A stretch of DNA of 64,000 nucleotides from a virus, in IMG/VR virus record IMGVR_UViG_3300037847_007805, positions 1 through 64,000 of that record. One strand, 5' to 3'. The notes under the pieces are model-generated. The model saw only the letters and a program-made list of their open reading frames with translations. It did not search any database and was not told the origin of the DNA. The position numbers and the translations under genes were made by a program. Below, piece by piece: positions 9,425 to 60,885 of the stretch; the first letter of the stretch is position 1, and every line of letters starts with the position of its first letter.

Positions 9425-9520
9425 ATTCACAAAGAAATATATCTTTTTTATTTTTAAAAATAATAATTTTTTTTTCTTTGCTTTTCACCTGTAGAATATA
9501 TATTTTTGTTAGTTATAATT

Positions 9521-12500
9521 ATGAAAAGAATAGATTTTTATGAAACATATTATAAAAATTTAAGTCCTTCGACATTTGAAGTAAAAAAAACTGATGAAAA
9601 AATTGAAATAACAGGTTTTAAAAATAAATATCCGAAAAACTTTACGGTTAAAGATGTTAAACAATTTCCTGTAAAACAACAATCTATGCAATCATACGAA
9701 AAAGGCGGACAAACTAATTTTAATCCTGACGGAGTAATGAAAGATAAAGTCGTTCACAGTTCAGGTAATGCAGGTGGAATGCTTGTAGGTAAAAGACATA
9801 GCGAAGGCGGAATAAAAGCAATTAACAAATCTACAGGTCAGCCAATAGAAATGGAAGGCGGAGAAGTTGTAATTACACGAAACGCTGTTTCTGATAACAA
9901 AAAAAGAAGTTTTAATGGCAAGATGATGACCAACCGTCAAATACTTTCAGAAATTAATCAAAGTGGTGGCGGTGTTTCTTTTGCTGATGGGGGCGAAATA
10001 CCTGACAATGTTAAATTTGATTGTAATGCTCAATATGAATACGGTGGTAAAACCATGTGTGGTAAAGATTTAGCAAAAAAAATGGCTAAAGGTGGTGCTG
10101 TAGATGATGATATGAGTGAATTAACTTCTGCTGTTCAACAAATGAATGAAATGATGCAAGAGGGTGGAGAAGTTGAAACAATTTCAGAAGAAAATTATGA
10201 GGTTCAAGTATTATATACAACAAAAGATTTTTACAAGAAATTTGTAACAATAAATTTAAAAGAAGTTAATATAAAAAATGGTTTTATAAAAAGTTTTACA
10301 CCTTTTACATTAGGAGAAGCGTTTTTTAAATCCTTGGATAATAGTTATCAAGACCTAAAACTTGATTCTGAATTTGATTTTTCTTTAAAAGATGCATCGG
10401 AAGAATATAGGATTAATGTTACAAAACAAGATATTGAAAATTTTATTTCGAGTTTAAAAGCATTTCAAGGTGTTTTAAAAGAAATAGTAGCTAACGATGA
10501 TACATATATTCAAAAAATAGATACAAAAATTGAAAGATTAAGAATAGATGGGCAACCCTATGAAGGTGCTGAAGGTTATGAAGAATCAATTTTAGAAAAT
10601 TTAGAGGGATATGGGAACTTCAACTCTACTTACATAATAAGACCCGAAGGTAGTACGAATCCTTATGATTGGTTTCCTATTTCTTCACTTGAAGGAAGGA
10701 GTAATCTTGATTATTTTGACTTTAAAAACAGTTTATATTTTACTGACCCTACAAAAGAGCCTTTGAATTTTATTACTGTTTATCCTGTAATCGGAAATCA
10801 AAATTTTCCACTTATAGATTCAAATAAGCCATTCGGTGTCGCTACTAATTTTGAAGAATTAGGAAAAGTAGTTTATGATTTAAGAAACGCAACTAAATTT
10901 CAAGAAGTTAGATATGCTTTATATCTTAATTCACAAGCAGAAAAATATGATTTTATAAATAACAATTTTTGTTTGGATATTGATGTTTTAAAAAATAAAG
11001 ATGTATTAATTTTAACTTTAAGGAAAAGAAGGTCATCTCGAGGACTTGCAGTTGCGGACTTTAAAGGAAATCCCGCAGGTTATTTTTTATATCGAACAAA
11101 AAGAATTTTTCAAAACCCAAACAAATTCTTATACTTATACAAGACAGTTAATTTGTATAAAGATGGTAATAAAATACAAACATTTTATAAAACATCAAAA
11201 TTGAATGTTTATGGTTGGACTAATTTTTCTCTTGGTTTAGATACAAGTAAAAGTGAAAAGGAAAAAATAAAATTATTAAAAAACACTCAAAAAATTAGGT
11301 CAAAGTTTATTAAAAAATATCAGACAAGTTCTATTGTACCTATGATTTTAAAAGATGAAACTGCAATAGACAAAACTATAAAATTTGAAGGTTTTGACTT
11401 TGCTTCTCAAGGAAAAAAAGGTTCAATGGCTTATAAAATCTTTCCAAGAAATGAAAAAGCATTTAACTTTGCTAAAGAAGTTGGTCTAATTGAAGCTGAT
11501 GCGGAAATACAAACCCTGATGGCTAAAGATTTATCATCACCCATAAAAAGCTATGATAAAATAATTCAATCTCTTTCAAAAGAATTAAAAATACAAAGAC
11601 CACTACTTACAAACGATGAAATAGCTTTGTATCAAAGAAAAATAACAAACTTAATTTTTAATCAAAGAAAATTACAGCAAAAACTTAATGAGCAAATTCC
11701 TTTGATTGACAGAGTTAAAAATTCTTTACAAACAAAATTTGGAGATATTAATAAAAAATATCCTGCAACTAAGTTAATGTCTATAAATGGCAAAAAATCA
11801 GAATTAACAAAACAAGAATATGAATTGGTTAGAACACAGCAATTTAAAACATTCTTCGGTGATTGGGAAACAGCTTATGAAACAGGGGACTATAACGGGT
11901 GTTCCAAAATTATTAATCAAGAAACAAAAGAACCTTTAGCTGTATTCCATGGTTCTGATACATTGTTTGCAGAGTTTCAAACTTATGAAACAAACAAATT
12001 ACATTATTTCGCTAAAAAAAGAGAAATGGCTAATTTTTTTGCTACATCTTGGAAAGAACGAGCCGATAAATCAGCACTTGATTCAGAAGCAATAAAACAG
12101 CTTAACCCAATGAAGGGTGAATTTATTTACAGGTGTTTTTTAGATATAAAAAACCCTATAGATTTTTCAAGATTTGGAATAGACCAAAGACCTATAAAGG
12201 ACTACCTAAAGTTTTTAGAAATAAATTATGATATAAGAGGTTTTGATTTCTTAATCACAGGCTCAAAGTATGGAAAATCATTTTTAGATAAAAAAGTTCC
12301 TGCTTGGTTAATTATTAGAACATGGCAAGATTTTAATTCTTACATAAATAATTTTACCCAATATGACGGTTATATTTTCTATGAATCCATACCTGAAAAA
12401 AGCCCAAAAACTATGGCTAACGCATCTTTATCATTTTGTGCATTTGAAAGCAGACAAATAAAATTAGCTGATTCAAATAATTTTAATGCACTTGTAGAAG

Positions 12501-13240
12501 ATATAAGATTTGAAAAAGGTGGTCGTACAATTAAAATTGTAAATGACGGAGTAAAGTTTGATAAGTCAAAATATAAAGCAGTTTATGGAGATTTTGATAA
12601 AGATGGTACTGTAAACATTGACGATGCTAACCCACTTGATGCAAAAAAATCAGGCAAGGTCGAACAAGTCGAACTTAAAGATACTTTTGACAAGCTATTA
12701 GGGGTTAAAGCTGAACTTGATGATATTATGTACGATGCTGTTGATACACTTGATGAAAAAGCACCATCTGATGCCGATATATATGCAAGAACTAAAACAC
12801 CGTACTCAATTCTCAAAAAACTTGTAGAAAAAAGAATGTTAGACCGTGAAAAAGGACTTACAGATATGATAGGAACAACCATTGCTGTAAAAAATCAAAA
12901 AGAACTCGAGCAAGTTAGAGATGATATTGACAATGGATTATTGGGTAAAATTTTAGACAGAGATGATTACTATAAATCTCCAAAAGCGGGATATAAGGCT
13001 TATCATTACATTGTAGATTATAAAGGTGTACCTGTTGAGGTTCAGTTAAAAACAAAAACTCAAAAGAAACTTCATGAAGCAAGTCATGATTTATATAAAA
13101 AAGGAAAATTAAATCCTTCTGAATTAAATAAAATGTCTGATTTATTTGAACAAGCTGATAGAGGAAACGCTAAAGCTAAAGCACAGGTAAATAAATTAGT
13201 AAAAAATAAAAAACAACTAACAAAAAAGATTTCTAAATGA
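9521..13240 (+). CDS. polyvalent protein: N-terminal G-H-GG/E-EGGE module, ADP-ribosyltransferase-like domain, Ca-binding-like repeat, C-terminal RelA/SpoT-type nucleotidyltransferase
   Basis: GKRHSEGG...IEMEGGEVVI; VRTQQFKTFFGDW...PLAVFHG...YFA...FLDIKNP...YDGYI...AFESRQIK; GDFDKDGTVNIDD; RTKTPYSILKK...DMIG...GYKAYH...VEVQLKT. Confidence 0.8.
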   Translation: MKRIDFYETYYKNLSPSTFEVKKTDEKIEITGFKNKYPKNFTVKDVKQFPVKQQSMQSYEKGGQTNFNPDGVMKDKVVHSSGNAGGMLVGKRHSEGGIKAINKSTGQPIEMEGGEVVITRNAVSDNKKRSFNGKMMTNRQILSEINQSGGGVSFADGGEIPDNVKFDCNAQYEYGGKTMCGKDLAKKMAKGGAVDDDMSELTSAVQQMNEMMQEGGEVETISEENYEVQVLYTTKDFYKKFVTINLKEVNIKNGFIKSFTPFTLGEAFFKSLDNSYQDLKLDSEFDFSLKDASEEYRINVTKQDIENFISSLKAFQGVLKEIVANDDTYIQKIDTKIERLRIDGQPYEGAEGYEESILENLEGYGNFNSTYIIRPEGSTNPYDWFPISSLEGRSNLDYFDFKNSLYFTDPTKEPLNFITVYPVIGNQNFPLIDSNKPFGVATNFEELGKVVYDLRNATKFQEVRYALYLNSQAEKYDFINNNFCLDIDVLKNKDVLILTLRKRRSSRGLAVADFKGNPAGYFLYRTKRIFQNPNKFLYLYKTVNLYKDGNKIQTFYKTSKLNVYGWTNFSLGLDTSKSEKEKIKLLKNTQKIRSKFIKKYQTSSIVPMILKDETAIDKTIKFEGFDFASQGKKGSMAYKIFPRNEKAFNFAKEVGLIEADAEIQTLMAKDLSSPIKSYDKIIQSLSKELKIQRPLLTNDEIALYQRKITNLIFNQRKLQQKLNEQIPLIDRVKNSLQTKFGDINKKYPATKLMSINGKKSELTKQEYELVRTQQFKTFFGDWETAYETGDYNGCSKIINQETKEPLAVFHGSDTLFAEFQTYETNKLHYFAKKREMANFFATSWKERADKSALDSEAIKQLNPMKGEFIYRCFLDIKNPIDFSRFGIDQRPIKDYLKFLEINYDIRGFDFLITGSKYGKSFLDKKVPAWLIIRTWQDFNSYINNFTQYDGYIFYESIPEKSPKTMANASLSFCAFESRQIKLADSNNFNALVEDIRFEKGGRTIKIVNDGVKFDKSKYKAVYGDFDKDGTVNIDDANPLDAKKSGKVEQVELKDTFDKLLGVKAELDDIMYDAVDTLDEKAPSDADIYARTKTPYSILKKLVEKRMLDREKGLTDMIGTTIAVKNQKELEQVRDDIDNGLLGKILDRDDYYKSPKAGYKAYHYIVDYKGVPVEVQLKTKTQKKLHEASHDLYKKGKLNPSELNKMSDLFEQADRGNAKAKAQVNKLVKNKKQLTKKISK

Positions 13241-14091
13241 GTGTTCTATCAAATATAGTCGGTACAGAATTACTTGGAAGTGGAACGGGTTTTCAAAGTA
13301 AGTTCCCTACAATGGTTTCTAAAGCTAATCTAATTAATAGTTCATCTTCTCAAGAGATAGATTCTATTATTGATAAAGCAATTTCTAAAGGAGTTTTTGA
13401 ATCAGGTGTGCGTTCATTAGATAATTCGGGAAAAAAAACCATTATACAAGCCCAATTAAATCAAGAACAAAAGGGCGAACCTTCTTTTATGCCAAATTAT
13501 GGTAAAACAGATGAAGAAGGAGAAAAAAATCCACCCACGGGGCAATCGCAATTTAAAGGTGGTGAAGGAGATTTTGATATTCAAAAATTCTTAGACGATG
13601 GCGAAGGAGAAGGCGAAGGTGAAGGCGAAGGCGAAGGAAAGGGAGAAGGACAAGGACAAGGAGAAGATGATAGCGAAGGAGAAGGAGAAGGAGAAGGAGA
13701 AGGAGAAGGAGAACCTCAACTACCTGAATTTAAAGAAGATGAAACTGAAGAAGAAAGAGAAGAAAGAGAGCAGAAAGAAAAAGAGGAAGAAGAAAAAAGA
13801 GAAAATCTAAACTTGTTGCCCCTTATTATAATTCCTGATGAATTGAAAAAAAATAAAGACGTAAAATATAGTTTAAAAGAATCCGAAATTGGAGTAATAA
13901 TTTCTATAAAAGCCAATAACGAATACTATGGTGTGCAAAAGGAATTTATGTTTGAAGTCAATAGACAGCCAATAACACTTGAAGGAAGGACTTTAAATTT
14001 TGATGGACAAGTAAATTTATTAAATAAAGAGTATGAGGATTTTGCAAAATCATACAATGAAGAAGTTTTAACAAAATATAAATCTAAATAA
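13237..14091 (+). CDS. acidic protein with (GE)n low-complexity tract
   Basis: GEGEGE repeat at ~13600-13713; immediately upstream of the AAA+ gene. Confidence 0.7.
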   Translation: MSVLSNIVGTELLGSGTGFQSKFPTMVSKANLINSSSSQEIDSIIDKAISKGVFESGVRSLDNSGKKTIIQAQLNQEQKGEPSFMPNYGKTDEEGEKNPPTGQSQFKGGEGDFDIQKFLDDGEGEGEGEGEGEGKGEGQGQGEDDSEGEGEGEGEGEGEPQLPEFKEDETEEEREEREQKEKEEEEKRENLNLLPLIIIPDELKKNKDVKYSLKESEIGVIISIKANNEYYGVQKEFMFEVNRQPITLEGRTLNFDGQVNLLNKEYEDFAKSYNEEVLTKYKSK

Positions 14092-14092
14092 A

Positions 14093-15451
14093 ATGACAAA
14101 AGAAGAATTATTAGAAATAGTAAACAACCCTGATAATCCTCAAGATTTGATTGATGATGCAAAAGAGCAGATAAGTAGATTAGAAAATCTTGAAAAAAGT
14201 GAAGTAAGCGGGGTAGATGCAGATGTTAGATTTGCTGTAGAGCAGTTTAACAGAGGTATAGAACAAATAGTTACAAAAGGTGTTGATAAACAAGAGGTGG
14301 CTGAAATAGTCAATAAAGAGTTTAGAAACAGTAAAATTGGAATTGACAACCTTGATAAATCAGTAAAAGAACTTATTGGTAAATCTCAAACTGTTCAAAT
14401 CGTAAACTATGAAGGAGTAACTGTAAAAACCTCTGATGGAAAAAAGAGAAAAGTATTTGATATTATACTTTCTGATTTTGAAGCGGGTAACAACGTATAT
14501 TTATATGGGGGTGCAGGAACAGGTAAAACTTTTATTGCAGGTCAAATAGCTAAAGCAATTAACTATAAATTAGTTACACTAAACTGTAATCAATTTACAT
14601 CTCCTTTGGATATTATTGGTGGACAAACCATTGAAGGGTATCAGGAAGGTAGATTAATTACAGCTTTTGGAAATTTAGATTTAGGTGTTAATCCTGCTAC
14701 AGGAAAAGAATTTAGTGGTGCTTTGTTACTATTAGATGAATTACCAAAACTTGACCCAAATACAGCAGGTGTTTTGAATGATGGATTGTCAAAAATTAAA
14801 GACCCTATAGAAAAATCACAAACGGGGAAAATAATTCCACCAACAATTACAAACGGTAGAGGTCAAGCTATTTCTAAAGGTAAAATTTTTGTTATCGCTA
14901 CAGGGAACTCTTTATTGAATGAAGCAGATGCCGACTATGAAGCAAACTTCAAACAGGATTTATCACTTCAAGATAGATTTGCAGGAAGTACATACGAATT
15001 AATTATTGACCCTGAATATGAATTAAATAACATTTTGCAGAATATAATGGTAGATGACAAGCTGTGTAACTTTACATTTATATTTAATTTCTTGTTTAGG
15101 CTTAGAGAAGTTATTGAAAAATACGAATTTCAAGGAAGGGCTTTTGTTTCCCAAAGGCTATCAGTATCATGCAGAGATACATATATTGCTTACAGATTAA
15201 ATGAAAGAATGGGAAGTAAAAAAATACCGAATGCAAAAACACTTCAGGTAGCAATTACAACTTTCTTGAGTTTGTTTACAAGCACTCAACAAAATGCAAT
15301 CAAATCTGATATTGATGTAGATGAGTTTTTCACTTTGGTAGATGAGAAAAACAAAATGCCATTAGATAAGTTAGATACTGAAAAAGATATTGAAGAAGCT
15401 GAAATGTTAATTTCTGCGTTCCAAAAAAATAACCAAGGTAAAATTACTTAA
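14093..15451 (+). CDS. MoxR/CobS-like AAA+ ATPase
   Basis: Walker A GGAGTGKT, Walker B LLLDE, IATGN sensor, SLQDRF. Confidence 0.85.
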   Translation: MTKEELLEIVNNPDNPQDLIDDAKEQISRLENLEKSEVSGVDADVRFAVEQFNRGIEQIVTKGVDKQEVAEIVNKEFRNSKIGIDNLDKSVKELIGKSQTVQIVNYEGVTVKTSDGKKRKVFDIILSDFEAGNNVYLYGGAGTGKTFIAGQIAKAINYKLVTLNCNQFTSPLDIIGGQTIEGYQEGRLITAFGNLDLGVNPATGKEFSGALLLLDELPKLDPNTAGVLNDGLSKIKDPIEKSQTGKIIPPTITNGRGQAISKGKIFVIATGNSLLNEADADYEANFKQDLSLQDRFAGSTYELIIDPEYELNNILQNIMVDDKLCNFTFIFNFLFRLREVIEKYEFQGRAFVSQRLSVSCRDTYIAYRLNERMGSKKIPNAKTLQVAITTFLSLFTSTQQNAIKSDIDVDEFFTLVDEKNKMPLDKLDTEKDIEEAEMLISAFQKNNQGKIT

Positions 15452-16998
15452 TGAATAGAACCAATTACATATACTATTCTTTTGACCCCGTTAAAGATAT
15501 AATGGCGGGTATGAAAACTGTTGAAGATAGAAATTTAGAAAGATGGACAACTCTAAGAAAAATTCAAGCAGATAATTCAAAACAATGGGAAGATACTAAC
15601 TTTTCAGGAAGAAAAATTGGAAGTAAGGATTCTGTAGAAAAACAATTTGACCTTGAAGATGGTCTTTCAAAATTTATAAGCACTCGACTTTTAAAACAAC
15701 TTGAAGATGCTTATGATACTGTTTTATCTGAAGTGGATTTGGGCGGTAATATACTTCCAAGCAGAATAAAATTTTCTTCTAAACCCATGGGTATTTTTGA
15801 CTTTGGTCAAGCATCAAAAGGTTTAATTAGACCTGTAGAGTTTTTTTCTACTGTAGACAATAAAATAATAAACCCTAAAGTGGTCAATAAAGAAACTAAA
15901 GGTGGTGAAAATTTATTTTATTACTTGAAAAAAACAGAAAAGATTTATGTTCAAAGAAGGCAAGAGGGTACAACTAAAATGGTTGATAATTGTCCTGAAT
16001 TGGATATAAAACAAAATAATAAACTAAAACTATTTTTACCTTACAGGGGAAATGAAATAGTAAATGAATGTAAAGGATTTAGATTGAGGTACACCTCTAC
16101 GAACCCCAAAGTTTATGCATATAGAGAAAAATTAGGTGGGGGAACAACTCCGTATGTTGATTTATATATAGCGATGGGGGGAGTATATGACCAAAACCCT
16201 GAATCAATGTCTATTAGAAGCGTACCTAACTTACTTTTAGCAAGAACTCTTGAAAACGCAGGAGTTAAAGTAAGAATTTTTGGTTTGTGGAGTACGGGAA
16301 ATAGGAATGATATTTTCTCAATCGCTTTGCTTATAAAAAATTATGGTGAATCAGTATCTACAAACCAATTAGCTATTTTATGTGCTGATACAAGGTTTTA
16401 CAGATATTGGCTTTCTATTTCAGCTAAAGGTATGATATATGATAAATTTGGTGTAGAAAAACCTGTCTTTGAAGGTACGGGTACTTTGAGAACTGAAGAT
16501 ATAAATGATTATATAATGCCAAGATTGAGAAATTTCACATTGTATAATATACAAGACGGAAAATTTCCTTCACAGCTTGTAAATAAACGACTAATAGTAT
16601 TTGTTCCTCTTGATGCAGATTCAGACGATAAAATTGATAGTGAAGAAGTAAGAAAACAAATTAAAGAAACTTATACAAAATTTGTAGATTATATATGTTT
16701 AGAGTTTTCGATTAACCCTGCTAAAGTAATTAAAGATATTCGAGTAAGACAGAATGAAGAAGGAATGAGTGCGAGTGAAACAAAAAGATATTTAAGAGAA
16801 GCTATTGCAAACGTATATAAAACAACAAGAGAATATAAGGGTAGTGATTTAGAATTGACAGATTCTGAAAAAATAGAACAAGCTGATAATATATTAGATA
16901 AAGAAAATCAATATATATTAGATACTCAAGATGGATATGAAGATACTGAAAAGAGTAGGGAAAAATTATTTGAAATTATAAACAAAACAATAAAATGA
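15451..16998 (+). CDS. putative VWA-like (CobT-like) partner of the AAA+ ATPase
   Basis: coupled to AAA gene; VDLYIA...LARTLENAGVKVRI...IKNYGE...FYR pattern; no canonical MIDAS. Confidence 0.5.
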   Translation: MNRTNYIYYSFDPVKDIMAGMKTVEDRNLERWTTLRKIQADNSKQWEDTNFSGRKIGSKDSVEKQFDLEDGLSKFISTRLLKQLEDAYDTVLSEVDLGGNILPSRIKFSSKPMGIFDFGQASKGLIRPVEFFSTVDNKIINPKVVNKETKGGENLFYYLKKTEKIYVQRRQEGTTKMVDNCPELDIKQNNKLKLFLPYRGNEIVNECKGFRLRYTSTNPKVYAYREKLGGGTTPYVDLYIAMGGVYDQNPESMSIRSVPNLLLARTLENAGVKVRIFGLWSTGNRNDIFSIALLIKNYGESVSTNQLAILCADTRFYRYWLSISAKGMIYDKFGVEKPVFEGTGTLRTEDINDYIMPRLRNFTLYNIQDGKFPSQLVNKRLIVFVPLDADSDDKIDSEEVRKQIKETYTKFVDYICLEFSINPAKVIKDIRVRQNEEGMSASETKRYLREAIANVYKTTREYKGSDLELTDSEKIEQADNILDKENQYILDTQDGYEDTEKSREKLFEIINKTIK

Positions 16999-17858
16999 TA
17001 GGATTAGATGGATTAGCATATATTGATAAAGAAATTAACCCTGTAATTGTTGTCGGTTTAGTTGATTTTATAGATAAGAAGTATTTAGTTCTAAATACTC
17101 CACCTCTTAATGGCGAATTTGGGAGTTATTTTTCTGAAACATATAATAATATAGATTCGATTATGAGGGCTTGTGAATTGTCTGTATTATCACAAGAGGA
17201 AATAATTAGAAGGGACGATAATTCTTCTATTGTATGGGGTACAAGGTCAAATGAATTAGATTTAGGCGATATTGTTTTTTATAATTTTAAAAAATATACG
17301 GTTATAGGACGGGTCTTAAACACCTATGCTCAACTTAATATACAAACTCCTGTTTTATTTAGTATGGACAGAATGTTTGAGGAATATAAAAATTTATTGT
17401 ATTCAAAGTATTCAGATGATGAGATACTAAATATAATTAACGATAAGCTAAAAGGGGGGGAATACAAAGATGATTTTGTATTGCCTTTTACTAATTCTGA
17501 AGATGAAAACTCTTGGGGTGAAAAAATCAAATTAGTTAAAAATTATAATAGGGAAGCCTATTCAAAAATTATTCAAAATTTAAATGATAGATATTTTGAA
17601 TTTGAAGAAAAAAGGCAAACTAAGGATTTTTTAAAGGACTTTTTATTAACTCGACAAGATGAAAAATTAGAAATTTTAGCAGATAGAAAGCCTGAATTTT
17701 ATGAATCGTTTGTGAGGCTTATCAACGTAGTAAACAACAAAATATATAGTCAAGAAAAAGGAATGGCTCAAGTCGAACCTGAAATTCTTGATTTTGAAAA
17801 AATGATGGAAGAAGAATTAGATTTTGAATCATTAATGGAAGAACAACTTGGGGAATAA
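16995..17858 (+). CDS. hypothetical protein
   Basis: ATGA-coupled ORF. Confidence 0.65.
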   Translation: MIGLDGLAYIDKEINPVIVVGLVDFIDKKYLVLNTPPLNGEFGSYFSETYNNIDSIMRACELSVLSQEEIIRRDDNSSIVWGTRSNELDLGDIVFYNFKKYTVIGRVLNTYAQLNIQTPVLFSMDRMFEEYKNLLYSKYSDDEILNIINDKLKGGEYKDDFVLPFTNSEDENSWGEKIKLVKNYNREAYSKIIQNLNDRYFEFEEKRQTKDFLKDFLLTRQDEKLEILADRKPEFYESFVRLINVVNNKIYSQEKGMAQVEPEILDFEKMMEEELDFESLMEEQLGE

Positions 17859-17888
17859 TTAGATATAAATAAAATTAAATTTAAAAAA

Positions 17889-20800
17889 ATGAGTGCAAAA
17901 GCAAAATACGAAAGTTTAGATAGAAGTAAATTGGACAAAGGGGTTCTAAAACTTCTCGATGTTATGAAGAAAAAAACAGACAACTTTGAAAACAAAGAAG
18001 TTGTAAAAGCATCTAAAGTAGAAGGTGCTTTGGATAAGCTGATAGCTAAATATCCTGATGCTGTTAAAAAGTCAAAGCCAAAAGCTAAAGCCAAGCCAAA
18101 AGCAAAGGCGAAAGCAAAAGCTAAATCTACAGGTTCTCCTAAAAAAGAAACTGTAATGACTGTGGCTAAAAGAATTAGAAAGGACGGAGAAAAATGGCAA
18201 GATGCACTCAAAAGAGCCAAAGCAGAAATGGGTAAAGAAACCAAAAAATCTAAATCTGCTGTTGAATCTGAAATGGATAAATTAAAGAAACTAATTGCCG
18301 AAGATAGTGTTCTAAAAGGATTTCAAAAATCTGACTTACAAAGAGATTCTGTAAGAAAAGCTAAACCAAGAGGAAAAAGAAAATCTACTACCAAAGGTGA
18401 AACTACTAATCAATATGGTACATTCAAAAATAAAGTTGGTAGACCTTATTGGGAAAGCAGAGAAAATCGTTCTGATAGATATGCACCAAAATATCCTGCT
18501 AACAAACCATTTTTAGAAGATGGTGGAGTAATTGTAGGTGGTTCAACAGTTCTTAGAAACAATGCCGATATAATGGATTTAGGAATTGCTAATTCTGATG
18601 CTGTATTTAAGCACGGTGGGGCAATACATAAAATGAGAAAAGAAAAAGATATTGACATTTACGAAGAACAAATGAAACATGGTGGTAAAACGCATGGTTC
18701 AGATTGTGGCTGTAAAACCTGTATGGAAAAAGGTGGTATGGTTGAGTATGCTATTTTAGAAGATTATGATGGGAATGACATAGAAAAAATGAAGTTTCCA
18801 AAACCAATAATTGAAAGTGAAGTAGTAGAGCCAATGGGTTATTCATTAGCTGATATTGAGGAAGATGAAGATGGAGTTCTTTATGCAAGATTTCAGCAAG
18901 ATGATGAATTTGCTAAAGGTGGAAGAATGAAGCAAGGTTACAATGACCGATTAGACGAAAGTTTAGGTATGCGTGATGGTGTCGAACCTATGATGATGCA
19001 ATCTTACAAAGACCGTAGAGATGAATCCAAAGGAATGGAAAAAGCTATGGGTCGTAGAGCATATCAATCGGTTGGCACAATGGATAAAATGGGTCATGGT
19101 GGTATGATGCAAGGTTACAACGATAGATTAGATGAAAGTTTAGGTATGCGTGATGGTGTCGAACCTATGATGATGCAATCTTACAAAGACCGTAGAGATG
19201 AATCCAAAGGAATGGAAAAAGCTATGGGTCGTAGAGCATATCAATCTGTGGGTACTATGGACAAAATGGGCATGGGTGGATATTTATTAGCGGGTGGCAC
19301 AGGTGCTTATTTAGGTGCTAAATATCCTGATAAAGTAAAAAAAGTAACTGACCCGTTAGATAAAGCTGTTGAAGATATAAATAGAAACTTAAGAAATAGA
19401 TATGAAGATGGCGGACTTGTAGTAGGTGGCTCAACAGTCCTAAGAGATAACGGAGATATTATGCCCTTGGGAACTGCTAATGCCGATGCAGTATTTCAGA
19501 CAGGTGGAGTTACAGCCCAAACTGTTGTAAACCCAAATGAAGCGATGGCTGATTTACAAAGCACTTATGGTTTTGATGATGTTTATGCTAAAGGTGGGAA
19601 GATAAAAATTAGGAATGGCAAGGTAGTAAAAACCGATATAATTCACGAAAAGGAATCGTTAGGTTTGCCATTTCGAATTGTTTATTCTAAATTTTTAAGA
19701 GCAAATGATATTTCTGAATCATCTTTGTCATTGGCAGATTCACTTGAACTTGAAACTATTGCGTTAAATGAGTGGGAAAAAAGTAATAAAACCTACGCTA
19801 AAGGGGGTTATATTGTTGAATGGTATGAAAATGACCAAAATAATTTTGAATACTTTGATAGCAACGAACTTAATGAGGCAAAGGACTTCTATAAATTTAT
19901 TAAAGACGAAAAATTCTATTACGAGAAACCTAAAGTGGTTTTAACTTCAAGAAGTGATGGAGAAGTATTAATGGGTAAAAAATTTGCTAAAGGTGGTAAA
20001 ATTGATGTAAGTAATTATAAAATCAATTATTTTGAAACTGAAAGCGATAGAGATAGTGGCGAATCTCAACAATTTGATTCTTTTGAAACTGATTATGATG
20101 CTTTCATAAATGATGCAAGACGTTTATATAAAAGAGATGGAATGGAAGCTGTTGAGGTTTTAAACGAAAAAGGAGAAACAGTCGTAATTTTTGATAATGA
20201 CACTCCCGATGGAGAATTTTATATGACTAAACCTTCCAAAAAATCTTCTAAATTAGAAGTTGGAGAATTTCAAGTAGGCAAAAGGGTAGGATTTATAAAT
20301 ACTCCACACGATGAAAGAGTTGGTGAAATTGTGGGAGAAGAACAGAATGGTAAATACCCTGTTAAATTAAAAAGCAAAATACACCAAGGATTTGAAGATA
20401 GAAAAGGTGAGCCAAAACTCATAAAAAGAGAGAACTTAATTAGATTATATAGTAGATGGGACGAAAGGGAAGAATTGGAGAAAAAATTTGATAGCGAAAT
20501 GAAAAGAATTTCACCTAAACAAATAGATAGGATTAAAAAAGAGTATGAAAAATATGAAGATATGCTCTCTCCTAAAAGGGATAATCCCGAATTTCAGGAA
20601 TTTTTTGTCAGAGAATCCCAAAAAATATCCATGGCTAAAGGTGGGAAGATTGATAATATGATAGGTAAAAAAGTTAAAGTTGATTTCAGAAAAGAGGTAG
20701 GCAAAATAATAAATATAGAAAATGATGATGTTACTGTTTTTTATCCTGAATTGGGATTTTCAGAAGTATTAGATGCTAAAGCAGTAGAAATTGTTTTTTT

Positions 20801-22004
20801 ACCAAATAAATTCGCTAAAGGTGGGGAGATTGATGGATTTACTATGAGCATGGTCAAATCAAGTGGAGATGTTACAAAAGTTGAAACCGAAGATGCTAAA
20901 ATCAAAATGGCTAAAGGTGGTATAGTAAAAAACCAAGATGAAAACCATTTATTGCGAACTGCAATAGGTTATTCAATAAGTAAAGGTAATCTTGATAAAG
21001 AAGATAGAAAAAAATTAACTGAAATATACAATAGGTTAGTTAGTTCAAAATTTCATTATGCTAAAGGTGGTAAAGTTGATGACTTAGGAAACCCAACAGA
21101 CCCAAAAGTCATTTCACAAATGGAAAAATTTATAAAAGAAAAAATGCCTAAATTGGATAAGGATAGATTTTTTACAGATGGAATGAAAAGAAAAGAAGCA
21201 AAAAGAATGTTCTATGAAAAATATGGTTATGGTGCTTATAACCCAAGGTTTTCAATTTTTGAAAAAGGTGGAAGGACAATGTATGATGCACCACCAAGTA
21301 AAATAGGTAAAGTGAAATTTTCTTTAGCAAAGGGTAGAGATTTTGACATAATTGTTCCTGAAGGTAAATTCAGGATTTTACGAATCCCCCCTTTTGATTT
21401 ACCAACAGAAGTTGTCGATATGAATAAAGGAAAAAATTTCCAAAAAACTCCCGTAAATGATAGTAAAATTGCTCAAAAATATCAAAAAGAAATTCAAGAG
21501 TATTTAAATATGGATAGTACAAGATTTGAAAAAGGTGGTAAAATAGGATTTGAAGCATTGTCAAAAAAAGTTGCTAAAAGATATGTTGGCAAAAAAGTTC
21601 CTAAAAAATTCCAAAATCAATATGGTAAAACATATAGTCCTGCCGAAGCAAAAGAAGTTGGAGATAAAGTAGCAGGTGCAGTATACAGAATGCAACAGGC
21701 TAAAAAAATGGCTAAAGGTGGTAAAACACAAGGGTACAATGATAAACTTGATGAAAGTTTAGGAAACACCAAAGGGAAGCGTTCTACTAAAGAGCAAAAC
21801 TATAAAGACCGCAGAAATGAATCCGAAGCAATGGAGAAAAAGGGCGGTAAAAGAAAGTATGCCCGTGTGAAAACAATGGATAAAGGTTCAAGAAAAAAGA
21901 AGCCAAATAGCTTTTTTGCTGTTGTAAAAAGAAAGCAGAAAAAAGGAGAGGCTTGGCAAGATGCTATTCAAAGAGTAAAAAAAGAAATGAAAATGAATAA
22001 ATAA
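17889..22004 (+). CDS. giant modular protein punctuated by [MFYL]xxGG motifs (putative core/cargo polyprotein)
   Basis: about 19 motif copies separating short modules; basic termini; internal duplications. Confidence 0.8.
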   Translation: MSAKAKYESLDRSKLDKGVLKLLDVMKKKTDNFENKEVVKASKVEGALDKLIAKYPDAVKKSKPKAKAKPKAKAKAKAKSTGSPKKETVMTVAKRIRKDGEKWQDALKRAKAEMGKETKKSKSAVESEMDKLKKLIAEDSVLKGFQKSDLQRDSVRKAKPRGKRKSTTKGETTNQYGTFKNKVGRPYWESRENRSDRYAPKYPANKPFLEDGGVIVGGSTVLRNNADIMDLGIANSDAVFKHGGAIHKMRKEKDIDIYEEQMKHGGKTHGSDCGCKTCMEKGGMVEYAILEDYDGNDIEKMKFPKPIIESEVVEPMGYSLADIEEDEDGVLYARFQQDDEFAKGGRMKQGYNDRLDESLGMRDGVEPMMMQSYKDRRDESKGMEKAMGRRAYQSVGTMDKMGHGGMMQGYNDRLDESLGMRDGVEPMMMQSYKDRRDESKGMEKAMGRRAYQSVGTMDKMGMGGYLLAGGTGAYLGAKYPDKVKKVTDPLDKAVEDINRNLRNRYEDGGLVVGGSTVLRDNGDIMPLGTANADAVFQTGGVTAQTVVNPNEAMADLQSTYGFDDVYAKGGKIKIRNGKVVKTDIIHEKESLGLPFRIVYSKFLRANDISESSLSLADSLELETIALNEWEKSNKTYAKGGYIVEWYENDQNNFEYFDSNELNEAKDFYKFIKDEKFYYEKPKVVLTSRSDGEVLMGKKFAKGGKIDVSNYKINYFETESDRDSGESQQFDSFETDYDAFINDARRLYKRDGMEAVEVLNEKGETVVIFDNDTPDGEFYMTKPSKKSSKLEVGEFQVGKRVGFINTPHDERVGEIVGEEQNGKYPVKLKSKIHQGFEDRKGEPKLIKRENLIRLYSRWDEREELEKKFDSEMKRISPKQIDRIKKEYEKYEDMLSPKRDNPEFQEFFVRESQKISMAKGGKIDNMIGKKVKVDFRKEVGKIINIENDDVTVFYPELGFSEVLDAKAVEIVFLPNKFAKGGEIDGFTMSMVKSSGDVTKVETEDAKIKMAKGGIVKNQDENHLLRTAIGYSISKGNLDKEDRKKLTEIYNRLVSSKFHYAKGGKVDDLGNPTDPKVISQMEKFIKEKMPKLDKDRFFTDGMKRKEAKRMFYEKYGYGAYNPRFSIFEKGGRTMYDAPPSKIGKVKFSLAKGRDFDIIVPEGKFRILRIPPFDLPTEVVDMNKGKNFQKTPVNDSKIAQKYQKEIQEYLNMDSTRFEKGGKIGFEALSKKVAKRYVGKKVPKKFQNQYGKTYSPAEAKEVGDKVAGAVYRMQQAKKMAKGGKTQGYNDKLDESLGNTKGKRSTKEQNYKDRRNESEAMEKKGGKRKYARVKTMDKGSRKKKPNSFFAVVKRKQKKGEAWQDAIQRVKKEMKMNK
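18933..19270 (+). repeat. 177-bp tandem duplication encoding QGYNDRLDESLG...GTMDK
   Basis: near-identical DNA copies starting at 18933 and 19110; diverged third copy at ~21729. Confidence 0.9.
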
Positions 22005-26373: not shown

Positions 26374-26695
26374 ACCTACAAATCAAACAGCAGAAACTAC
26401 AGGGGCTGAAGCAGTAGCCTCTCAAGATACAGCAGGGGCAGTAGATAGTACAAGCCCTTCGCCATCTAATTTTGAAGAAGGTGGTGAATTAAAAGCAGGT
26501 GGGGAATACTCACTTGTATATTATTTGACATTTGCATTATTACTTTCTGCATCAGCTTATAGTATTTATTATCATAGACAGGCATTAAACAAATTAATGG
26601 ACGATGATAATGATGAACTAAAAAGAGAAGTGCGTGAAGTAAAATCTAATCTTAAAAAATTAATGGGCAACAAGTATGAAATTATCACTAAATAA
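26363..26695 (+). CDS. membrane protein
   Basis: FEEGG motif followed by TM helix and coiled coil. Confidence 0.65.
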   Translation: MENKPTNQTAETTGAEAVASQDTAGAVDSTSPSPSNFEEGGELKAGGEYSLVYYLTFALLLSASAYSIYYHRQALNKLMDDDNDELKREVREVKSNLKKLMGNKYEIITK

Positions 26696-27326
26696 TATAA
26701 CATACGGAAATCCTAATTCATCTCACAAGAAGGCTTTATCAAAAACCTGTCTTGTGGATTCTTTATTTGAGGAACTAACAAAATTTCCATTTCCTGAAAA
26801 TGAAAGCGATACTACAAAACAAGAACTAAATGAACTTGTAGATTACTTAGAAGATATGGACATTGTAGATAATGAAAAAATTAGAAAAAGATACATTTTC
26901 TACGATAGAAACCTATTTCAAGCAATCATAAATACTTTCAGAACTGATAAAGTAGATATAAAACAACTTATAAACGATATTGATAATGACATAACAGGTT
27001 TAATAGTAAAATTAAAATACTTTTACCAAAGACCAAGACCTTATCAACTTGCCAATTATTACAAACTAAAACTTTTTCCAATAAATACAAAATCGGGACA
27101 TTCACCGTCTTATCCAAGCGGACACACTACACAGGCTTATGTAATTTTAACAATTTTAGGAAATCTTGTGCCTGAATACTATCAAAAAACAAAAAAAATG
27201 ATAGAAGATGTTGCGTATAGCAGATGCTATATGGGTGTCCATTATCAAACTGATAATGATTTTGCGTTTCTTGTAGCACAAAAGATTTTAAAACAACCTG
27301 AATTTGTTGAAAAATATGGAATTTGA
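26676..27326 (+). CDS. PAP2-superfamily phosphatase/haloperoxidase-like protein
   Basis: KYFYQRPRP, SYPSGH, SRCYMGVHYQTD (C1-C3 motifs). Confidence 0.85.
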   Translation: MKLSLNNITYGNPNSSHKKALSKTCLVDSLFEELTKFPFPENESDTTKQELNELVDYLEDMDIVDNEKIRKRYIFYDRNLFQAIINTFRTDKVDIKQLINDIDNDITGLIVKLKYFYQRPRPYQLANYYKLKLFPINTKSGHSPSYPSGHTTQAYVILTILGNLVPEYYQKTKKMIEDVAYSRCYMGVHYQTDNDFAFLVAQKILKQPEFVEKYGI

Positions 27327-51459: not shown

Positions 51460-51909
51460 ATGATTTATTGGTTCACAGGACAACCTGCTCATGGTAAAAC
51501 TACCCTTGCAAGAAAACTAATGAAATATCACAAAGATATTTATGATAACAAAATCAAAAGCATATCTATTGATGGCGATGATTTAAGAGAAGTTTTTAAT
51601 AACAAAGATTACAGCGAAAAAGGAAGAAGGAAAAACATAAAATTAGCACAAGATTTGGCTCTGTTTATGCATCATAAGGGTTACGATGTATATGTTTCTT
51701 TGGTAACTCCATTTATAGATATGAGAGAAGATTTCAAACAATTAATGAAATCTGAAATTAAAGAATTTTACGTTTACTGTAGTAAAGAAAGGGAAAGAGA
51801 AATGTATAAAGTAAAAGATTATCAGCCACCAAAAGATAACTTTACTTTGATTGATACTACTGAAGATAGTATAGAAAAATCTCTTTTTAAAATTTTACAA
51901 AATATATGA
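51460..51909 (+). CDS. cysC: adenylyl-sulfate (APS) kinase-like protein
   Basis: WFTGQPAHGKTT, IDGDDLR, DYSEKGRRKNI, SLVTPF, YQPP. Confidence 0.8.
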   Translation: MIYWFTGQPAHGKTTLARKLMKYHKDIYDNKIKSISIDGDDLREVFNNKDYSEKGRRKNIKLAQDLALFMHHKGYDVYVSLVTPFIDMREDFKQLMKSEIKEFYVYCSKEREREMYKVKDYQPPKDNFTLIDTTEDSIEKSLFKILQNI

Positions 51910-52784
51910 ATATAATACTAAACATTCAAGGCGGTCTTGGTAAAAACATTTTAGCAACAGCTTTGGTAAAAGGAATTAAAAAAAGATACCCCAACTCCTT
52001 TCTAATCGTTATTAGTGGTTATCCTGATGTGTTTTTAAATAATCCGTCTGTCAGCAAATGTTTAAGGCATGACCAACAGGTAGGCATTTATAATAAATAC
52101 ATAAAAAATCACGACACAAAATTTTTCATAATTGACCCTTACATGACGAGTGATTTTCAAAATGGAAAAGGACATTTGTTACGAATTTGGTTTGAATTGT
52201 GTGGTCTAAACTATAAGGGTGAGCAACCTCAATTTTTTCTTTCTAAAGTCGAAAAACAGTATTATAAAACAGCATATCCAATAACAAAACCAATTTTAGC
52301 TATTCAACCTAATGGTGGGGCTAAAAATCAGGGTATGTATTATAATTGGGCAAGAGATATTCCTGAAGTTATTACTACAAAAATTATAAATAAATTTAAA
52401 AACGATTATCAGATTGTTCATATAAAACGTCAAGACCAAATGTCGTTTACAAACACTACACAGGCTTTAGACAGTTTTAGAAGCATTGCATATTTAATAT
52501 CCATATCTGAAAAGTGTTTGTTTATTGATAGTTTTGCACAGCACTTGGCTAAAGCAGTAAATAAAAAAGCTGTTGTGCTTTGGTCAGCAACAGAGCCTGA
52601 AATGTTTGGCTACGATTCACATATAAACATTAAAGCAAATAAATACACAAAAGAACCACAATACAATCATGGACACTATAAGCCTTTTGAACTTGTTGAG
52701 CCAATAGAAAAATGTCCTTATCAAGATTTATCTGAAATTTTTGATTATAATTTAGTTTATAACAAACTTTATTCGTATAATTAG
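51906..52784 (+). CDS. GT9-like (heptosyltransferase-fold) glycosyltransferase
   Basis: IQGGLGKNI...KKRYP, FIDSFAQHLA, AVVLW, FGY. Confidence 0.7.
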   Translation: MNIILNIQGGLGKNILATALVKGIKKRYPNSFLIVISGYPDVFLNNPSVSKCLRHDQQVGIYNKYIKNHDTKFFIIDPYMTSDFQNGKGHLLRIWFELCGLNYKGEQPQFFLSKVEKQYYKTAYPITKPILAIQPNGGAKNQGMYYNWARDIPEVITTKIINKFKNDYQIVHIKRQDQMSFTNTTQALDSFRSIAYLISISEKCLFIDSFAQHLAKAVNKKAVVLWSATEPEMFGYDSHINIKANKYTKEPQYNHGHYKPFELVEPIEKCPYQDLSEIFDYNLVYNKLYSYN

Positions 52785-52823
52785 TTTATTTTTGTATTAG
52801 TTTTATAAAATAATTTTAATATC

Positions 52824-53135
52824 ATGGCAAAAAAGATTCAAGAAACACAAAAAATTGAAAAAGAAGAACTTAAGGAGTTACAAGAATTAGTAGGTGCTAC
52901 TACTGATGCAAACAACAGGATTGCACAACTTTGTCTTAACAAAGAAAGAACTTTTAGAAATCTTCAAAAGGAGTTTGATGAGAGCATGGAACTTATTGAA
53001 CTTCAAATAAAAGAAGCTAATGAAAAGCAAGTTGAATTTGTTAAAGAATTAGACAGCAAGTACGGTCAGGGCAAAAGCTATGACCTATCCACAGGGGAAA
53101 TAAAAGATGTGGAGAAAAAAGATGAAAGTAATTGA
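52824..53135 (+). CDS. coiled-coil protein (possible fibre chaperone)
   Basis: EELKELQ...LDSKYG...YDLSTGEI, near the fibre gene. Confidence 0.55.
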   Translation: MAKKIQETQKIEKEELKELQELVGATTDANNRIAQLCLNKERTFRNLQKEFDESMELIELQIKEANEKQVEFVKELDSKYGQGKSYDLSTGEIKDVEKKDESN

Positions 53136-53658
53136 CCCTGCTGATAAAGTAATACAAAACGTAATTTTTGAGAAACCCGAAGTCGTAGTAAAGATTTTGA
53201 GGGATAGCGGTGTGTCTGTATCTAACAGACCTACTCTTGATGAAATTACTGAAAAAACATTTGTAGAGGTTTACGATAAGCAGAACAAAGAGTTTGCTAA
53301 AAAGTTTGATAGCTTAATCAAAACGGGTGAGTACAACAATGCTGTAGGTATTGTTCTAACTATTGCTTCAGGTATCTTTTCGGGTATCATGGGTTCAAGA
53401 CAAGCAAGAAAGCAAAGGGCAACTATGGAAAGAATTGCTGTTGCTCAATTAGAAAATGATAAATTACTTGCCCAAGACCAAAACAGAATTTACGGAGAAA
53501 CCGAAAGAACTAAAATTTTAGCAAGTAGCTTACTCGATTATAGAGGTAAACTACAAGATGCTTCCACAGAAAGACAAAAAAATGTTTATTATTACTTGAT
53601 TGCCCTTGGATTAGGAATATCAATTATTTATGGTACAAACTTATTATTAGCTGACTAA
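53122..53658 (+). CDS. structural membrane protein, NAxG family
   Basis: VVKILRDSGV domain, YNNAVG, Gly-rich hydrophobic segment, coil, C-terminal TM. Confidence 0.7.
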   Translation: MKVIDPADKVIQNVIFEKPEVVVKILRDSGVSVSNRPTLDEITEKTFVEVYDKQNKEFAKKFDSLIKTGEYNNAVGIVLTIASGIFSGIMGSRQARKQRATMERIAVAQLENDKLLAQDQNRIYGETERTKILASSLLDYRGKLQDASTERQKNVYYYLIALGLGISIIYGTNLLLAD

Positions 53659-53999
53659 TGGCAAAGCAAGGTGGATTTGACGTAGGTAATTTAGCGGGTA
53701 CTTTAATTAGTACCTTTATTGGTATTGGCTTTGCTAAAAATGATGCTAAAAAACAGCGACAGCTTCAAGAAAAGATAGCAAATATGTCGCTTGAAAATCA
53801 ACAAGCAATCGCTAATAGATTAGCAGAGGCACAAACAAACATTGAAAAACAAAGAATAGCTTTTCAAATTTTAGCACTTGAAAACAACGCTAATTTAGTA
53901 AGAGAATTAGAGGGAGAAAAAAATAAATCATTAATTGTTCTTGGTGTTGGTGCTATCGCACTTGCAGTTGTTATAGTTTTAGCAAAATTTAAAAAGTAG
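53658..53999 (+). CDS. membrane protein with coiled coil
   Basis: N-terminal Gly-rich hydrophobic segment, C-terminal TM. Confidence 0.7.
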   Translation: MAKQGGFDVGNLAGTLISTFIGIGFAKNDAKKQRQLQEKIANMSLENQQAIANRLAEAQTNIEKQRIAFQILALENNANLVRELEGEKNKSLIVLGVGAIALAVVIVLAKFKK

Positions 54000-54004
54000 A
54001 TATT

Positions 54005-54211
54005 ATGAGCCAAAGAGTAGGAGATTTTGGAAGTGAACTTATGAGTTGTGGAAACGATAGTGAAATTAAAAAATATGGTTCAGAACAAGCGTGTAGGGAA
54101 GCAAAACTATTTCCAAATAAAAAGAAATCTGAAAAGGTAAGTAAACAATATCTTATGTATGGTCTTATAGCAGTAGCGGGATATTTCGCATACAAAAAAT
54201 TTAAAAAATAA
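54005..54211 (+). CDS. C-terminally anchored protein
   Basis: IAVAGYFAYKKFKK like 33197/33474. Confidence 0.7.
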   Translation: MSQRVGDFGSELMSCGNDSEIKKYGSEQACREAKLFPNKKKSEKVSKQYLMYGLIAVAGYFAYKKFKK

Positions 54212-54555
54212 TGGACGGGCAAACTAAAAAACTTTTAATAGTAGTTGGAATAGCTGTATTAGTTCTATGGGTTACGAAACCAAAAAACAATATGGTAGAT
54301 TCAATGAGAAAAGGTGGTTCTAAAAAATTAGATGCACCTAAAACTTTAGATTCAAAACTTGCTCAAGAACAGCATGAAGGTACAGTTGGTATTCAAGCGA
54401 TGCGAAGTGCAATAGCAAATGGAGAAACGAAAAAAGAACTTGACAAACTAAATAGAATGCTTTTGAATGAAAATGGCATCAAAGTTTATGTAATGTCAAA
54501 TGGTAAATTGTGTGCGAGAAACAGAAAGGGTAAAACAGTTGCAAAAGAAAAATAA
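54211..54555 (+). CDS. N-terminally anchored protein
   Basis: LLIVVGIAVLVLWV. Confidence 0.7.
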   Translation: MDGQTKKLLIVVGIAVLVLWVTKPKNNMVDSMRKGGSKKLDAPKTLDSKLAQEQHEGTVGIQAMRSAIANGETKKELDKLNRMLLNENGIKVYVMSNGKLCARNRKGKTVAKEK

Positions 54556-54558
54556 TTT

Positions 54559-57758: not shown

Positions 57759-57770
57759 CTTTAGTTTTTG

Positions 57771-57995: not shown

Positions 57996-57997
57996 AA

Positions 57998-59277: not shown

Positions 59278-59337
59278 TTCGTGTTAATTTTGATTTACCC
59301 TGTATTGTGTCTAATTAGGGTAATTAGTTTCTTGGAT

Positions 59338-59368
59338 AGCGGGTCGCTTTATGCGACCTGCTTTTTTT
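59338..59368 (+). terminator. intrinsic terminator-like hairpin in plus-strand orientation
   Basis: AGCGGGTCGC-TTTAT-GCGACCTGCT then T tract; G.U pair only on the plus strand. Confidence 0.7.
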
Positions 59369-60870: not shown

Positions 60871-60885
60871 TGTGTCTAATAAGTT

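Follow-up and report, generated by a model that had tools for sequence, protein, structure and literature searches.

Organization of the gene

The gene described here (ORF 9506/9521-13240, plus strand; ORF, open reading frame) encodes a large protein of an uncultured virus, record IMGVR_UViG_3300037847_007805 of IMG/VR. The window, by which we mean the whole stretch of DNA that was analyzed, is 64,000 nucleotides (nt) long and corresponds to the first 64 kb of this 79,409-bp record, which CheckV rates as 100% complete. The genome has a G+C content of about 30%, its gene content includes an endolysin, RecT, RusA and a replication-initiator, and neither terminal inverted nor terminal direct repeats were found in it. 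Translated from the ATG at 9521, the gene gives a protein of 1,239 amino acids (aa) that is identical to the database protein P0003.

By its domain content, the gene product is a polyvalent effector made of seven modules, the last two of which are enzymes, namely an ART-PolyVal domain (ART, ADP-ribosyltransferase) and a RelA/SpoT enzyme with a calcium loop. The modules end with the peptide [FYM]-[A/E]-K-G-G, the next module starting with x-[L/T/I/V], and have been moved, dropped and re-ordered at these seams over evolution. The features of the gene are the following:

9521-13240, plus strand: whole gene, polyvalent effector protein of seven modules (ORF list and translation)
9521-9709, plus strand: module 1, N-terminal leader (aa 1-63), ending with YEKGG at nt 9695-9709 (motif map; leader also in the close homologues P0004-P0007)
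9710-9994, plus strand: module 2 (aa 64-158), "HSEGG...EGGEVVIT", ending with FADGG (clusters at E ≤ 1e-3, alignments)
9995-10168, plus strand: three mini-modules (aa 159-176, 177-192 and 193-216), ending with YEYGG, MAKGG and MQEGG, respectively (motif map)
10169-12523, plus strand: module 6 (aa 217-1001), made of an unknown region, helices and the ART domain, with the end IRFEKGG (homology segments)
11930-12487, plus strand: ART-PolyVal domain (aa 804-989; Pfam PF18760)
12509-12523, plus strand: FEKGG seam (aa 997-1001), ART/RelA junction (homology breakpoints, conservation)
12524-13237, plus strand: module 7 (aa 1002-1239), calcium loop and small-alarmone-synthetase-like RelA/SpoT enzyme (comparison of 116 homologous modules)
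12590-12625, plus strand: EF-hand-like DxDxDG loop (aa 1024-1035; direct sequence reading)
12788-13105, plus strand: RelA_SpoT nucleotidyl/pyrophosphoryl-transferase core (aa 1090-1195; Pfam PF04607)

In the motif map, module 6 has no internal seam motif. The first two mini-modules (aa 159-176 and 177-192) are conserved together with module 2 in relatives.

The two C-terminal modules carry ART-PolyVal and RelA/SpoT domains

We assign aa 804-989 to the ART-PolyVal family because this region matches the Pfam profile PF18760 (33.9 bits for a cut-off of 31.2, E = 6e-8, positions 5-139 out of the 140 of the hidden Markov model (HMM)) and because H810, Y829 and E955 are conserved in homologues (18/22, 18/22 and 21/25, respectively). 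These three residues are candidate catalytic residues. The family, whose active site has a His on strand 1, a Tyr on strand 2 and an acidic residue on strand 5, has been described as H-Y-D (PMC5512222), and E955 is here a candidate for the acidic residue of strand 5. Structural models were also compared. In a first AlphaFold2 (AF2) model, which covered aa 640-1239, the ART part was poorly modeled, and a second model of the ART part, built with 62 sequences, had a predicted local distance difference test score (pLDDT) of 69.6 and a predicted template modeling score (pTM) of 0.66. Foldseek returned no ART match with this second model. VIA-align gave weak matches to diphtheria toxin (Z 4.3), MbcT (Z 4.4) and NatT (Z 4.8) over model residues ~113-303, all below the noise level of the tool, and the same core weakly matched a cyanophage pre-ejectosome protein (Z 5.0), below the level at which the tool is reliable.

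For the last module, the Pfam profile PF04607 (RelA_SpoT) matches aa 1090-1195 with 54.7 bits for a cut-off of 27 (E = 1.5e-14), and the last 238 residues of the protein can be aligned with RelSeq over its synthetase domain (E = 4e-6). AlphaFold models aa ~1052-1239 with a pLDDT of 70-90, and its Foldseek matches include RelP and RelQ, two small alarmone synthetases, together with the tRNA pyrophosphokinase CapRel (E ~1e-5, probability 1.0). The catalytic motifs RxKxxxS (R1090/K1092/S1096), D..G (D1115/G1118), GY..H (G1157/Y1158/H1162) and ExQx[RK]T (E1173/Q1175/K1177/T1178) are all present, D1115 being the Asp expected to bind Mg, and their residues are invariant in 24 out of 24 aligned homologues. 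We predict this module to be a pyrophosphokinase of the small-alarmone-synthetase type with all its catalytic residues intact. Ahead of the core, the EF-hand-like loop D1024-x-D1026-x-D1028-G1029...D1035 is likewise invariant (24/24 homologues) and is modeled with low confidence by AF2. A preliminary description of the sequence had proposed an ART-like domain ending at IRFEKGG and a small alarmone synthetase-like domain (RxKxxxS, D..G, GY.A.H, EVQ), both of which agree with the profile matches above, as well as a DxDxDG Ca-binding-like repeat; the latter is present and invariant, but it is a single EF-hand-like loop and not a repeat.

Outside the window, the same genome encodes a 190-aa HD_4 protein (genome positions 78044-78616, minus strand; L001:15044-15616) that corresponds to the hydrolase part of RelA/SpoT enzymes (Pfam, E = 2.4e-12; positions 1-121 of TIGR00691) and that has an orthologue in G002, one of two sister viruses (G001 and G002). 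It is a small alarmone hydrolase encoded by the virus itself and might counteract the RelA module as an antidote. According to PMC7229694, such hydrolases serve as antitoxins in systems of toxic small alarmone synthetases (toxSAS). The HD_4 gene lies ~65 kb from the gene with the RelA module. No antitoxin gene adjoins the synthetase gene, the neighbours of which are a glycosyltransferase gene and the gene of an acidic repeat protein. Having both an alarmone synthetase that is probably toxin-like and is joined to a calcium loop, and an alarmone hydrolase of its own, this virus offers an entry to how viruses use and restrain alarmone-type weapons.

FEKGG marks the boundary between two shuffled modules

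By comparing the protein with 119 homologues using BLAST, we found that aa 1001-1002 is where 56 out of 172 homology segments stop, and that about 40 begin at aa 993-1002. Segments shared with ART-only relatives start at aa 682 in 22 cases and further upstream in the others. G1000 and G1001 are near-invariant among homologues. Both sides of this breakpoint also exist as separate proteins. ART-only proteins end with ..RFDLGGIL, ..RFDFGGTL, ..FDFGGKL or ..FEKGGKI, directly followed by the stop codon, and stand-alone RelA proteins (e.g. P0137-P0139) begin with M-K-R-K-V-K-I-V-N-E-G, which is the post-GG position. Among the 116 homologous RelA modules, 59 stand directly after [hydrophobic]-x-x-G-G, 45 have a GG within 8 aa, 11 start the protein and a single one has no GG. 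In the sister virus G001, the ART protein terminates with FEKGGKI-stop; in both G001 and G002, the RelA module is found inside the other large motif-rich gene, that is the counterpart of ORF 17889-22004 of the window. When all proteins were compared with one another, 31.6% of 7,552 internal segment ends fell between positions -2 and +3 relative to the GG of a motif, compared to 3.9% for random positions, which is to be taken as an effect size and not as a probability since the segments are not independent.

In the ART model, the last confident strand covers aa 968-975 and aa 977-1003 have a pLDDT below 50. FEKGG is thus not within a continuous fold: it lies 22 residues past this strand, in a low-confidence tail, and the seam has a pLDDT below 50 in both AF2 models. 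FEKGG is the exact seam between two independently shuffled modules. That the motif sits at a real enzyme boundary, as initially proposed, is borne out by the homology break at aa 1001-1002, by the existence of separate ART-only and RelA-only proteins and by the low-confidence tail in the model, with both flanking domains matching Pfam profiles.

The seam motif is overrepresented and conserved on both sides of the Gly-Gly

The protein has six [FYM]-x-x-G-G motifs, starting at aa 59 (YEKGG), 154 (FADGG), 172 (YEYGG), 188 (MAKGG) and 212 (MQEGG), with FEKGG at aa 997-1001, that is exactly at nt 12509-12523; all six had been listed in the preliminary description, FEKGG with these same nucleotide positions. 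Each of them has L, T, I or V at the second residue past the GG. The seven-residue form [FYM]xxGGx[LTIV] is observed 6 times in the 1,239-aa protein for 0.147 expected, and none of 20,000 shuffles reached six. ORF 17889-22004 has 16 such motifs for 0.26 expected, and the remaining 90 ORFs of at least 100 aa in the genome (21,431 residues) have 6 altogether.

From 1,148 motifs we derived the logo [F35/Y34/M19/L12]-[A53/E19]-[K49]-G-G-x-[L29/T24/I23/V18], with unconserved flanks. The search pattern used for this logo fixed the first position and both glycines, so that the second residue past the GG was not selected; it is nonetheless aliphatic or Thr in 94% of the motifs. The five upstream residues go with the upstream module, RFEKGG closing the ART module whatever comes next, and the residues after the GG go with the downstream module, RT-I-x-I opening the RelA module whatever precedes. 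Successive seams are sometimes separated by only 5-28 residues, and tandem seams with a 28-residue period occur. In 48 out of 120 proteins, the C-terminus lies exactly two residues past the GG of a motif. Because the motif is kept at C-termini with just these two residues after the GG, its role goes beyond the separation of domains; it may be a docking tag or a tag that is cut after use, and this C-terminal conservation points to a recognition tag, cut or uncut.

At the nucleotide level, the motifs have the core GCT-AAA-GGT-GG. GGT encodes the first Gly in 81% of 79 motifs, compared to 48% of all Gly codons of the same genes (window 9521-22004 and the counterparts in G001 and G002). We judge that this bias may reflect the avoidance of GGAGG more probably than a recombination signal.

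Module 2 is widespread and associated with many partner domains

In an exhaustive search with aa 64-192, the number of representative clusters was 1,113 at E ≤ 1e-3 and still 247 when the threshold was E ≤ 1e-30. Among the top matches, module 2 is 60-87% identical, with the remainder of each protein differing, and it is placed at the start, in the middle or at the end of proteins of ~100-2,200 aa. The conserved module measures 95-130 aa and is nearly invariant in alignments A4 and A5; together with the next two mini-modules, it is the most conserved part of these proteins. Module 2 has no Pfam match. A possible identity as crAss cargo protein 1 (atlas score 0.82) was not confirmed by hmmscan. 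In 36 proteins with module 2, we found ART-PolyVal (20), DUF5661 (19), DUF5824 (11), Zeta toxin (7), Eco57I/N6 DNA methylase (4), GNAT (3), NUDIX (2) and ArdA (1) domains. No MuF, portal or tape-measure domain was found in the 1,239-aa protein (Pfam, E ≤ 1) nor in these 36 relatives. We infer that module 2 is a candidate for a common loading or processing module. Its presence in more than 1,000 protein clusters at 60-87% identity suggests a key part of a machinery, the binding partner of which is worth finding.

Seam motifs and conserved gene order around the effector gene

The seam motif is also found in two further genes of the window, one of them separated from the effector gene by a block of four genes:

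13237-17858, plus strand: gene block between the two seam-motif genes, encoding an acidic GE-repeat protein, a MoxR-type AAA+ ATPase, a 515-aa protein and a 287-aa protein
17889-22004, plus strand: second seam-motif protein, 1,371 aa, lysine-rich, with ~22 motifs (motif map); the sister-virus counterpart carries the RelA module
60886-61770, minus strand: unrelated 294-aa lysine-rich basic protein with the C-terminus FDEGGII-stop (orthologues in G001 and G002)

In the block, the MoxR-type AAA+ ATPase at 14093-15451 matches Pfam AAA_5/bpMoxR, the acidic protein has a (GE)n run, and the 515-aa and 287-aa proteins have no family match. Homologues of three out of the four block genes are found in G001 and G002 in the same order, and the GE-repeat protein has no BLAST match there. 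Gene order is also kept on L017, a 132-kb contig binned with a Sediminibacterium genome, where a MoxR-like gene and then a 515-aa-like gene follow that of the big protein. Matches in genome bins come from Sediminibacterium, Roseivirga, Ignavibacteria, Salinispira and Phycisphaerales, and may correspond to binned viral contigs. The effector gene itself (9521-13240) lies outside the putative morphogenesis block, 3' of glycosyltransferase genes.

At L017:8716-10925, three consecutive genes encode stand-alone modules, one of them an ART, and each ends with a seam motif followed by a common tail of 16 residues (..DYL[KR]MFLGK-stop), the next gene beginning a few bases later. This arrangement may represent a tag that is cleaved off or a cassette for gene splitting. 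The orthologues of the 294-aa basic protein end with LEKGGKI (G001) and FEKGGII (G002) despite an overall identity of ~30%.

Two side observations concern these genes. The protein of ORF 17889-22004 contains runs of AKAKPK as well as a unit that is repeated, QGYNDRLDESLG...YKDRRDESKGMEK; the unit QGYNDRLDESLG...YKDRRDESKGMEK also ends the G001 and G002 counterparts, always just past a seam motif. The gene at 60886-61770 lies just upstream of that of a 235-aa protein with the conserved sequences GTDLxHAYWRIA and WKTDCIYYR.

A proposed model of loading and cleavage, and its alternatives

The reading that we favor, to which we give slightly less than an even chance, is that the whole chain is loaded into the particle and cut after Gly-Gly, and that the freed enzymes are delivered to the host. 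The protein would be loaded into the virus particle, perhaps via the conserved module 2, and the seam peptide would be recognized there and cut after Gly-Gly by a viral or host protease. The freed enzymes would then enter the host along with the DNA. The ART would modify host proteins using NAD+, and the product of the RelA-type enzyme would be (p)ppGpp, (p)ppApp or pyrophosphorylated tRNA, so that host growth would be stalled, with the viral small alarmone hydrolase limiting self-harm later in infection. In favor of cutting, the motif splits into a P side that belongs to the upstream module and a P' side that belongs to the downstream module, stand-alone RelA forms begin just past the GG, and the tails shared on L017 look like a removable peptide. 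In favor of early action, proteins with module 2 carry ArdA, N6 DNA methylases, Zeta kinases, GNAT and NUDIX domains, and from this domain repertoire Iyer et al. 2017 argue for packaging and for delivery with the incoming DNA (PMC5512222). A precedent is given by T5 pb2 and lambda gpH, virion proteins that are cut by an unidentified protease (PMC10038345, PMC12617516).

Several observations weigh against this proposal. Profiles of the C5 (PF00770), C48 (PF02902) and C39 peptidases of Pfam had no match in the genome, rated 100% complete, PF00770 and PF02902 being searched at E ≤ 10, a search that a very divergent enzyme could escape, and no protease common to the relatives was found. The only papain-like candidate, ORF 55022-55486 (plus strand, 154 aa), weakly matches LRAT and PPPDE (Peptidase_C97), carries the signature His...NNCEHF and has a membrane helix at its C-terminus; it might act on phospholipids or be a peptidase of the Gly-Gly type. 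It looked promising as a protease because PPPDE enzymes cleave after Gly-Gly; it was rejected as the seam protease, being absent from G001, G002 and L017. The M23 peptidase of ORF 62280-62801, which is absent from G001 and G002, was rejected as well. Screening the conserved ORFs for invariant Cys and His left only PAP2, RecT and a polymerase-like protein. The motif is moreover kept at C-termini, two residues after the GG, where cutting separates nothing, and some seams are just 5-28 residues apart, a spacing that would suit a series of binding sites no less than cut sites. The 22 residues preceding FEKGG are conserved inside the ART family, so that FEKGG is not a loose linker. Finally, the cleavage products and the virion location are both features that we infer. 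What the seam displays is modularity, which is not proteolysis. The preliminary description had taken the position of the motif as support for polyprotein processing and for the delivery of host-takeover enzymes. With no conserved protease and a motif kept at C-termini, the former does not follow from the seam, and the argument for the latter comes from the family repertoire (ArdA, DNA methylases). Of that description, the enzymes and the boundary find support, and the processing, the delivery and the calcium-binding repeat do not in the form in which they were proposed.

If the seam were recognized and left uncut, the peptide aromatic/Met-x-x-G-G-x-aliphatic would be a docking tag for some component of the virion or of its assembly, possibly helped by the MoxR block, and the multi-enzyme protein would be loaded and would act in one piece. 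This fits with the conservation of the motif at the C-termini of ART-only proteins (the 48 out of 120 proteins that end two residues past the GG), with its use as the last residues of an unrelated basic protein in three viruses, with the tandem seams and their 28-residue period, which would suit multivalent binding, and with the finding of no conserved protease. The MoxR block stays between both motif-rich genes, and there is a precedent in the N4 virion RNA polymerase, a polyvalent protein that is packaged unprocessed (PMC5512222). We nevertheless hold docking alone to be somewhat unlikely, in that no candidate binding partner was identified and a motif divided between a GG side kept with the upstream module and an x-[LTIV] side kept with the downstream one fits a substrate better; stand-alone forms that start right past the GG and tails on L017 that resemble removable peptides are also at odds with it.

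An explanation that dispenses with recognition altogether, the motif being a structural hinge accepted between any pair of folds and a favored recombination seam in an enzyme array that acts as one chain, appears improbable to us. It does fit the low pLDDT at the seam and the coincidence of homology breakpoints with motifs, and the common core GCT-AAA-GGT-GG, with GGT at 81% for a background of 48%, could aid microhomology-based exchange. However, a hinge needs neither an aromatic residue or Met at -5, nor Lys at -3, nor an aliphatic residue at +2, and gives no reason for retention at C-termini; eleven nucleotides are too short for homologous recombination, and the codon bias may merely reflect the avoidance of GGAGG. 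We consider it very improbable that the protein is not virion cargo at all and acts inside the cell as a multi-enzyme host-takeover or anti-defence factor, the RelA module and the hydrolase tuning host alarmones. The position of the gene after glycosyltransferase genes and outside the putative morphogenesis block, the lack of MuF, portal and tape-measure domains in the protein and its 36 relatives, and the alarmone hydrolase of the virus itself would be in line with this. On the other hand, the ArdA and DNA methylase modules of sister proteins are most sensible at DNA entry (PMC5512222), the ART model has its weak fold match to a cyanophage pre-ejectosome protein (Z 5.0), and both the seam motif and module 2 would be left unexplained.

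Loading followed by cleavage after Gly-Gly can also be framed more broadly. The peptide [FYM]-[A/E]-K-G-G-x-[LTIV] would then be the combined loading-and-cleavage signal of an undescribed cargo system, in which a freely interchangeable arsenal including ART, alarmone synthetase, Zeta kinase, ArdA and methylases is loaded into particles and then released in the host as separate enzymes, by means of a protease or receptor that may be linked with module 2 or the MoxR block. This would be a prokaryotic counterpart of the Gly-Gly maturation of adenovirus and African swine fever virus (ASFV), and we regard this wider proposal as unlikely. If the seam is indeed a recognition signal, large unannotated cargo proteins of uncultured viruses could be divided into functional units by a simple rule, and a way to load foreign proteins into such particles would be at hand.

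Comparison with known systems

The protein falls under the definition of the polyvalent proteins described by Iyer, Burroughs, Anand, de Souza and Aravind in 2017 (PMC5512222), in which unrelated effector domains, ART-PolyVal and RelA/SpoT among them, are joined in one viral polypeptide. It has at least two unrelated effector domains and is encoded by a viral genome, the definition of the class covering phages and conjugative elements, and its relatives share the ArdA, methylase, Zeta, GNAT and NUDIX domains of that class. In contrast, the MPTase, MuF and assemblin peptidase domains of polyvalent proteins are absent from it. The same study reports RelA/SpoT acquisitions among (pro)phages of Spirochaetes as well as of epsilon-Proteobacteria. 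Since ART and RelA/SpoT domains are both named there, the enzyme combination is of a known kind; the seam grammar and module 2 are absent from the literature that was searched. The text of PMC5512222 has neither of the terms "glycine" and "linker" and does not describe the seam peptide, the use of a C-terminal tag or module 2, and a search of full-text literature for YAKGG gave nothing relevant. In a phage database searched by tblastn and megablast, the effector had a single match of 79 residues, in a Pasteurella phage, and ORF 17889-22004 had none.

With the toxSAS (FaRel, FaRel2, CapRel and PhRel; PMC7229694, PMC11782079), the RelA module shares a single-domain RelA/SpoT synthetase fold that serves as a weapon, CapRel being among its best fold matches. 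A possible antidote hydrolase is encoded in the same genome, but it is not adjacent to the synthetase and lies ~65 kb away. The adenosine 3'-pyrophosphokinase toxins of temperate phages (PMC12226406) are fused to MuF, a domain that is lacking here. Moreover, in contrast to both toxSAS and MuF-fused toxins, an invariant EF-hand-like loop precedes the enzyme.

Adenovirus (adenain) and ASFV (pS273R) cut polyproteins or precursors at Gly-Gly, in the context (M/I/L)-x-G-G. The seam is similar to these sites in having a hydrophobic residue a few positions ahead of the Gly-Gly and in its placement, which is between functional units, within basic proteins of a core-like kind and as the last residues of a basic protein. 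It differs by its hydrophobic-x-x-G-G spacing as compared with (M/I/L)-x-G-G, and no clan CE protease was detected in the genome. In T4, gp21 cuts an N-terminal capsid-targeting signal at L-x-E. Alt and the internal proteins of T4, T5 pb2 and lambda gpH would be alike to the effector in being loaded into the particle, processed during assembly and injected, provided that the effector is indeed loaded and cut. T5 pb2 was rejected as a closer match: it is cut after R1127, just before ..AEGGMM.., so that its glycines come after the cut site, and module 2 gave no BLAST alignment with pb2C, the cleaved fragment of T5 pb2.

Other features of the window

Positions 9501-9508 of the window read TATTTTTG, a candidate -7 promoter element of the Bacteroidota type (TAnnTTTG). 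TATTTTTG is located 13 nt 5' of the start codon of the effector gene, after an AT-rich gap of 340 nt. Among 41 ORFs of window 51460-63728 or L001 that were scanned together (alignment A2), one weakly matched the Pfam profile of the STING ligand-binding domain (E = 3e-4).

Genes for a PAP2 phosphatase, an APS kinase, sulfotransferases, methyltransferases and several glycosyltransferases are found at window positions 26676-27326 and 51460-51909 and in the last 15 kb of the genome. The motifs of the PAP2 phosphatase are intact (KxxxxxxRP/PSGH/SRxxxxxHxxxD), and this group of genes, from PAP2 to the glycosyltransferases, looks like a virus-encoded set for glycan or lipid modification.

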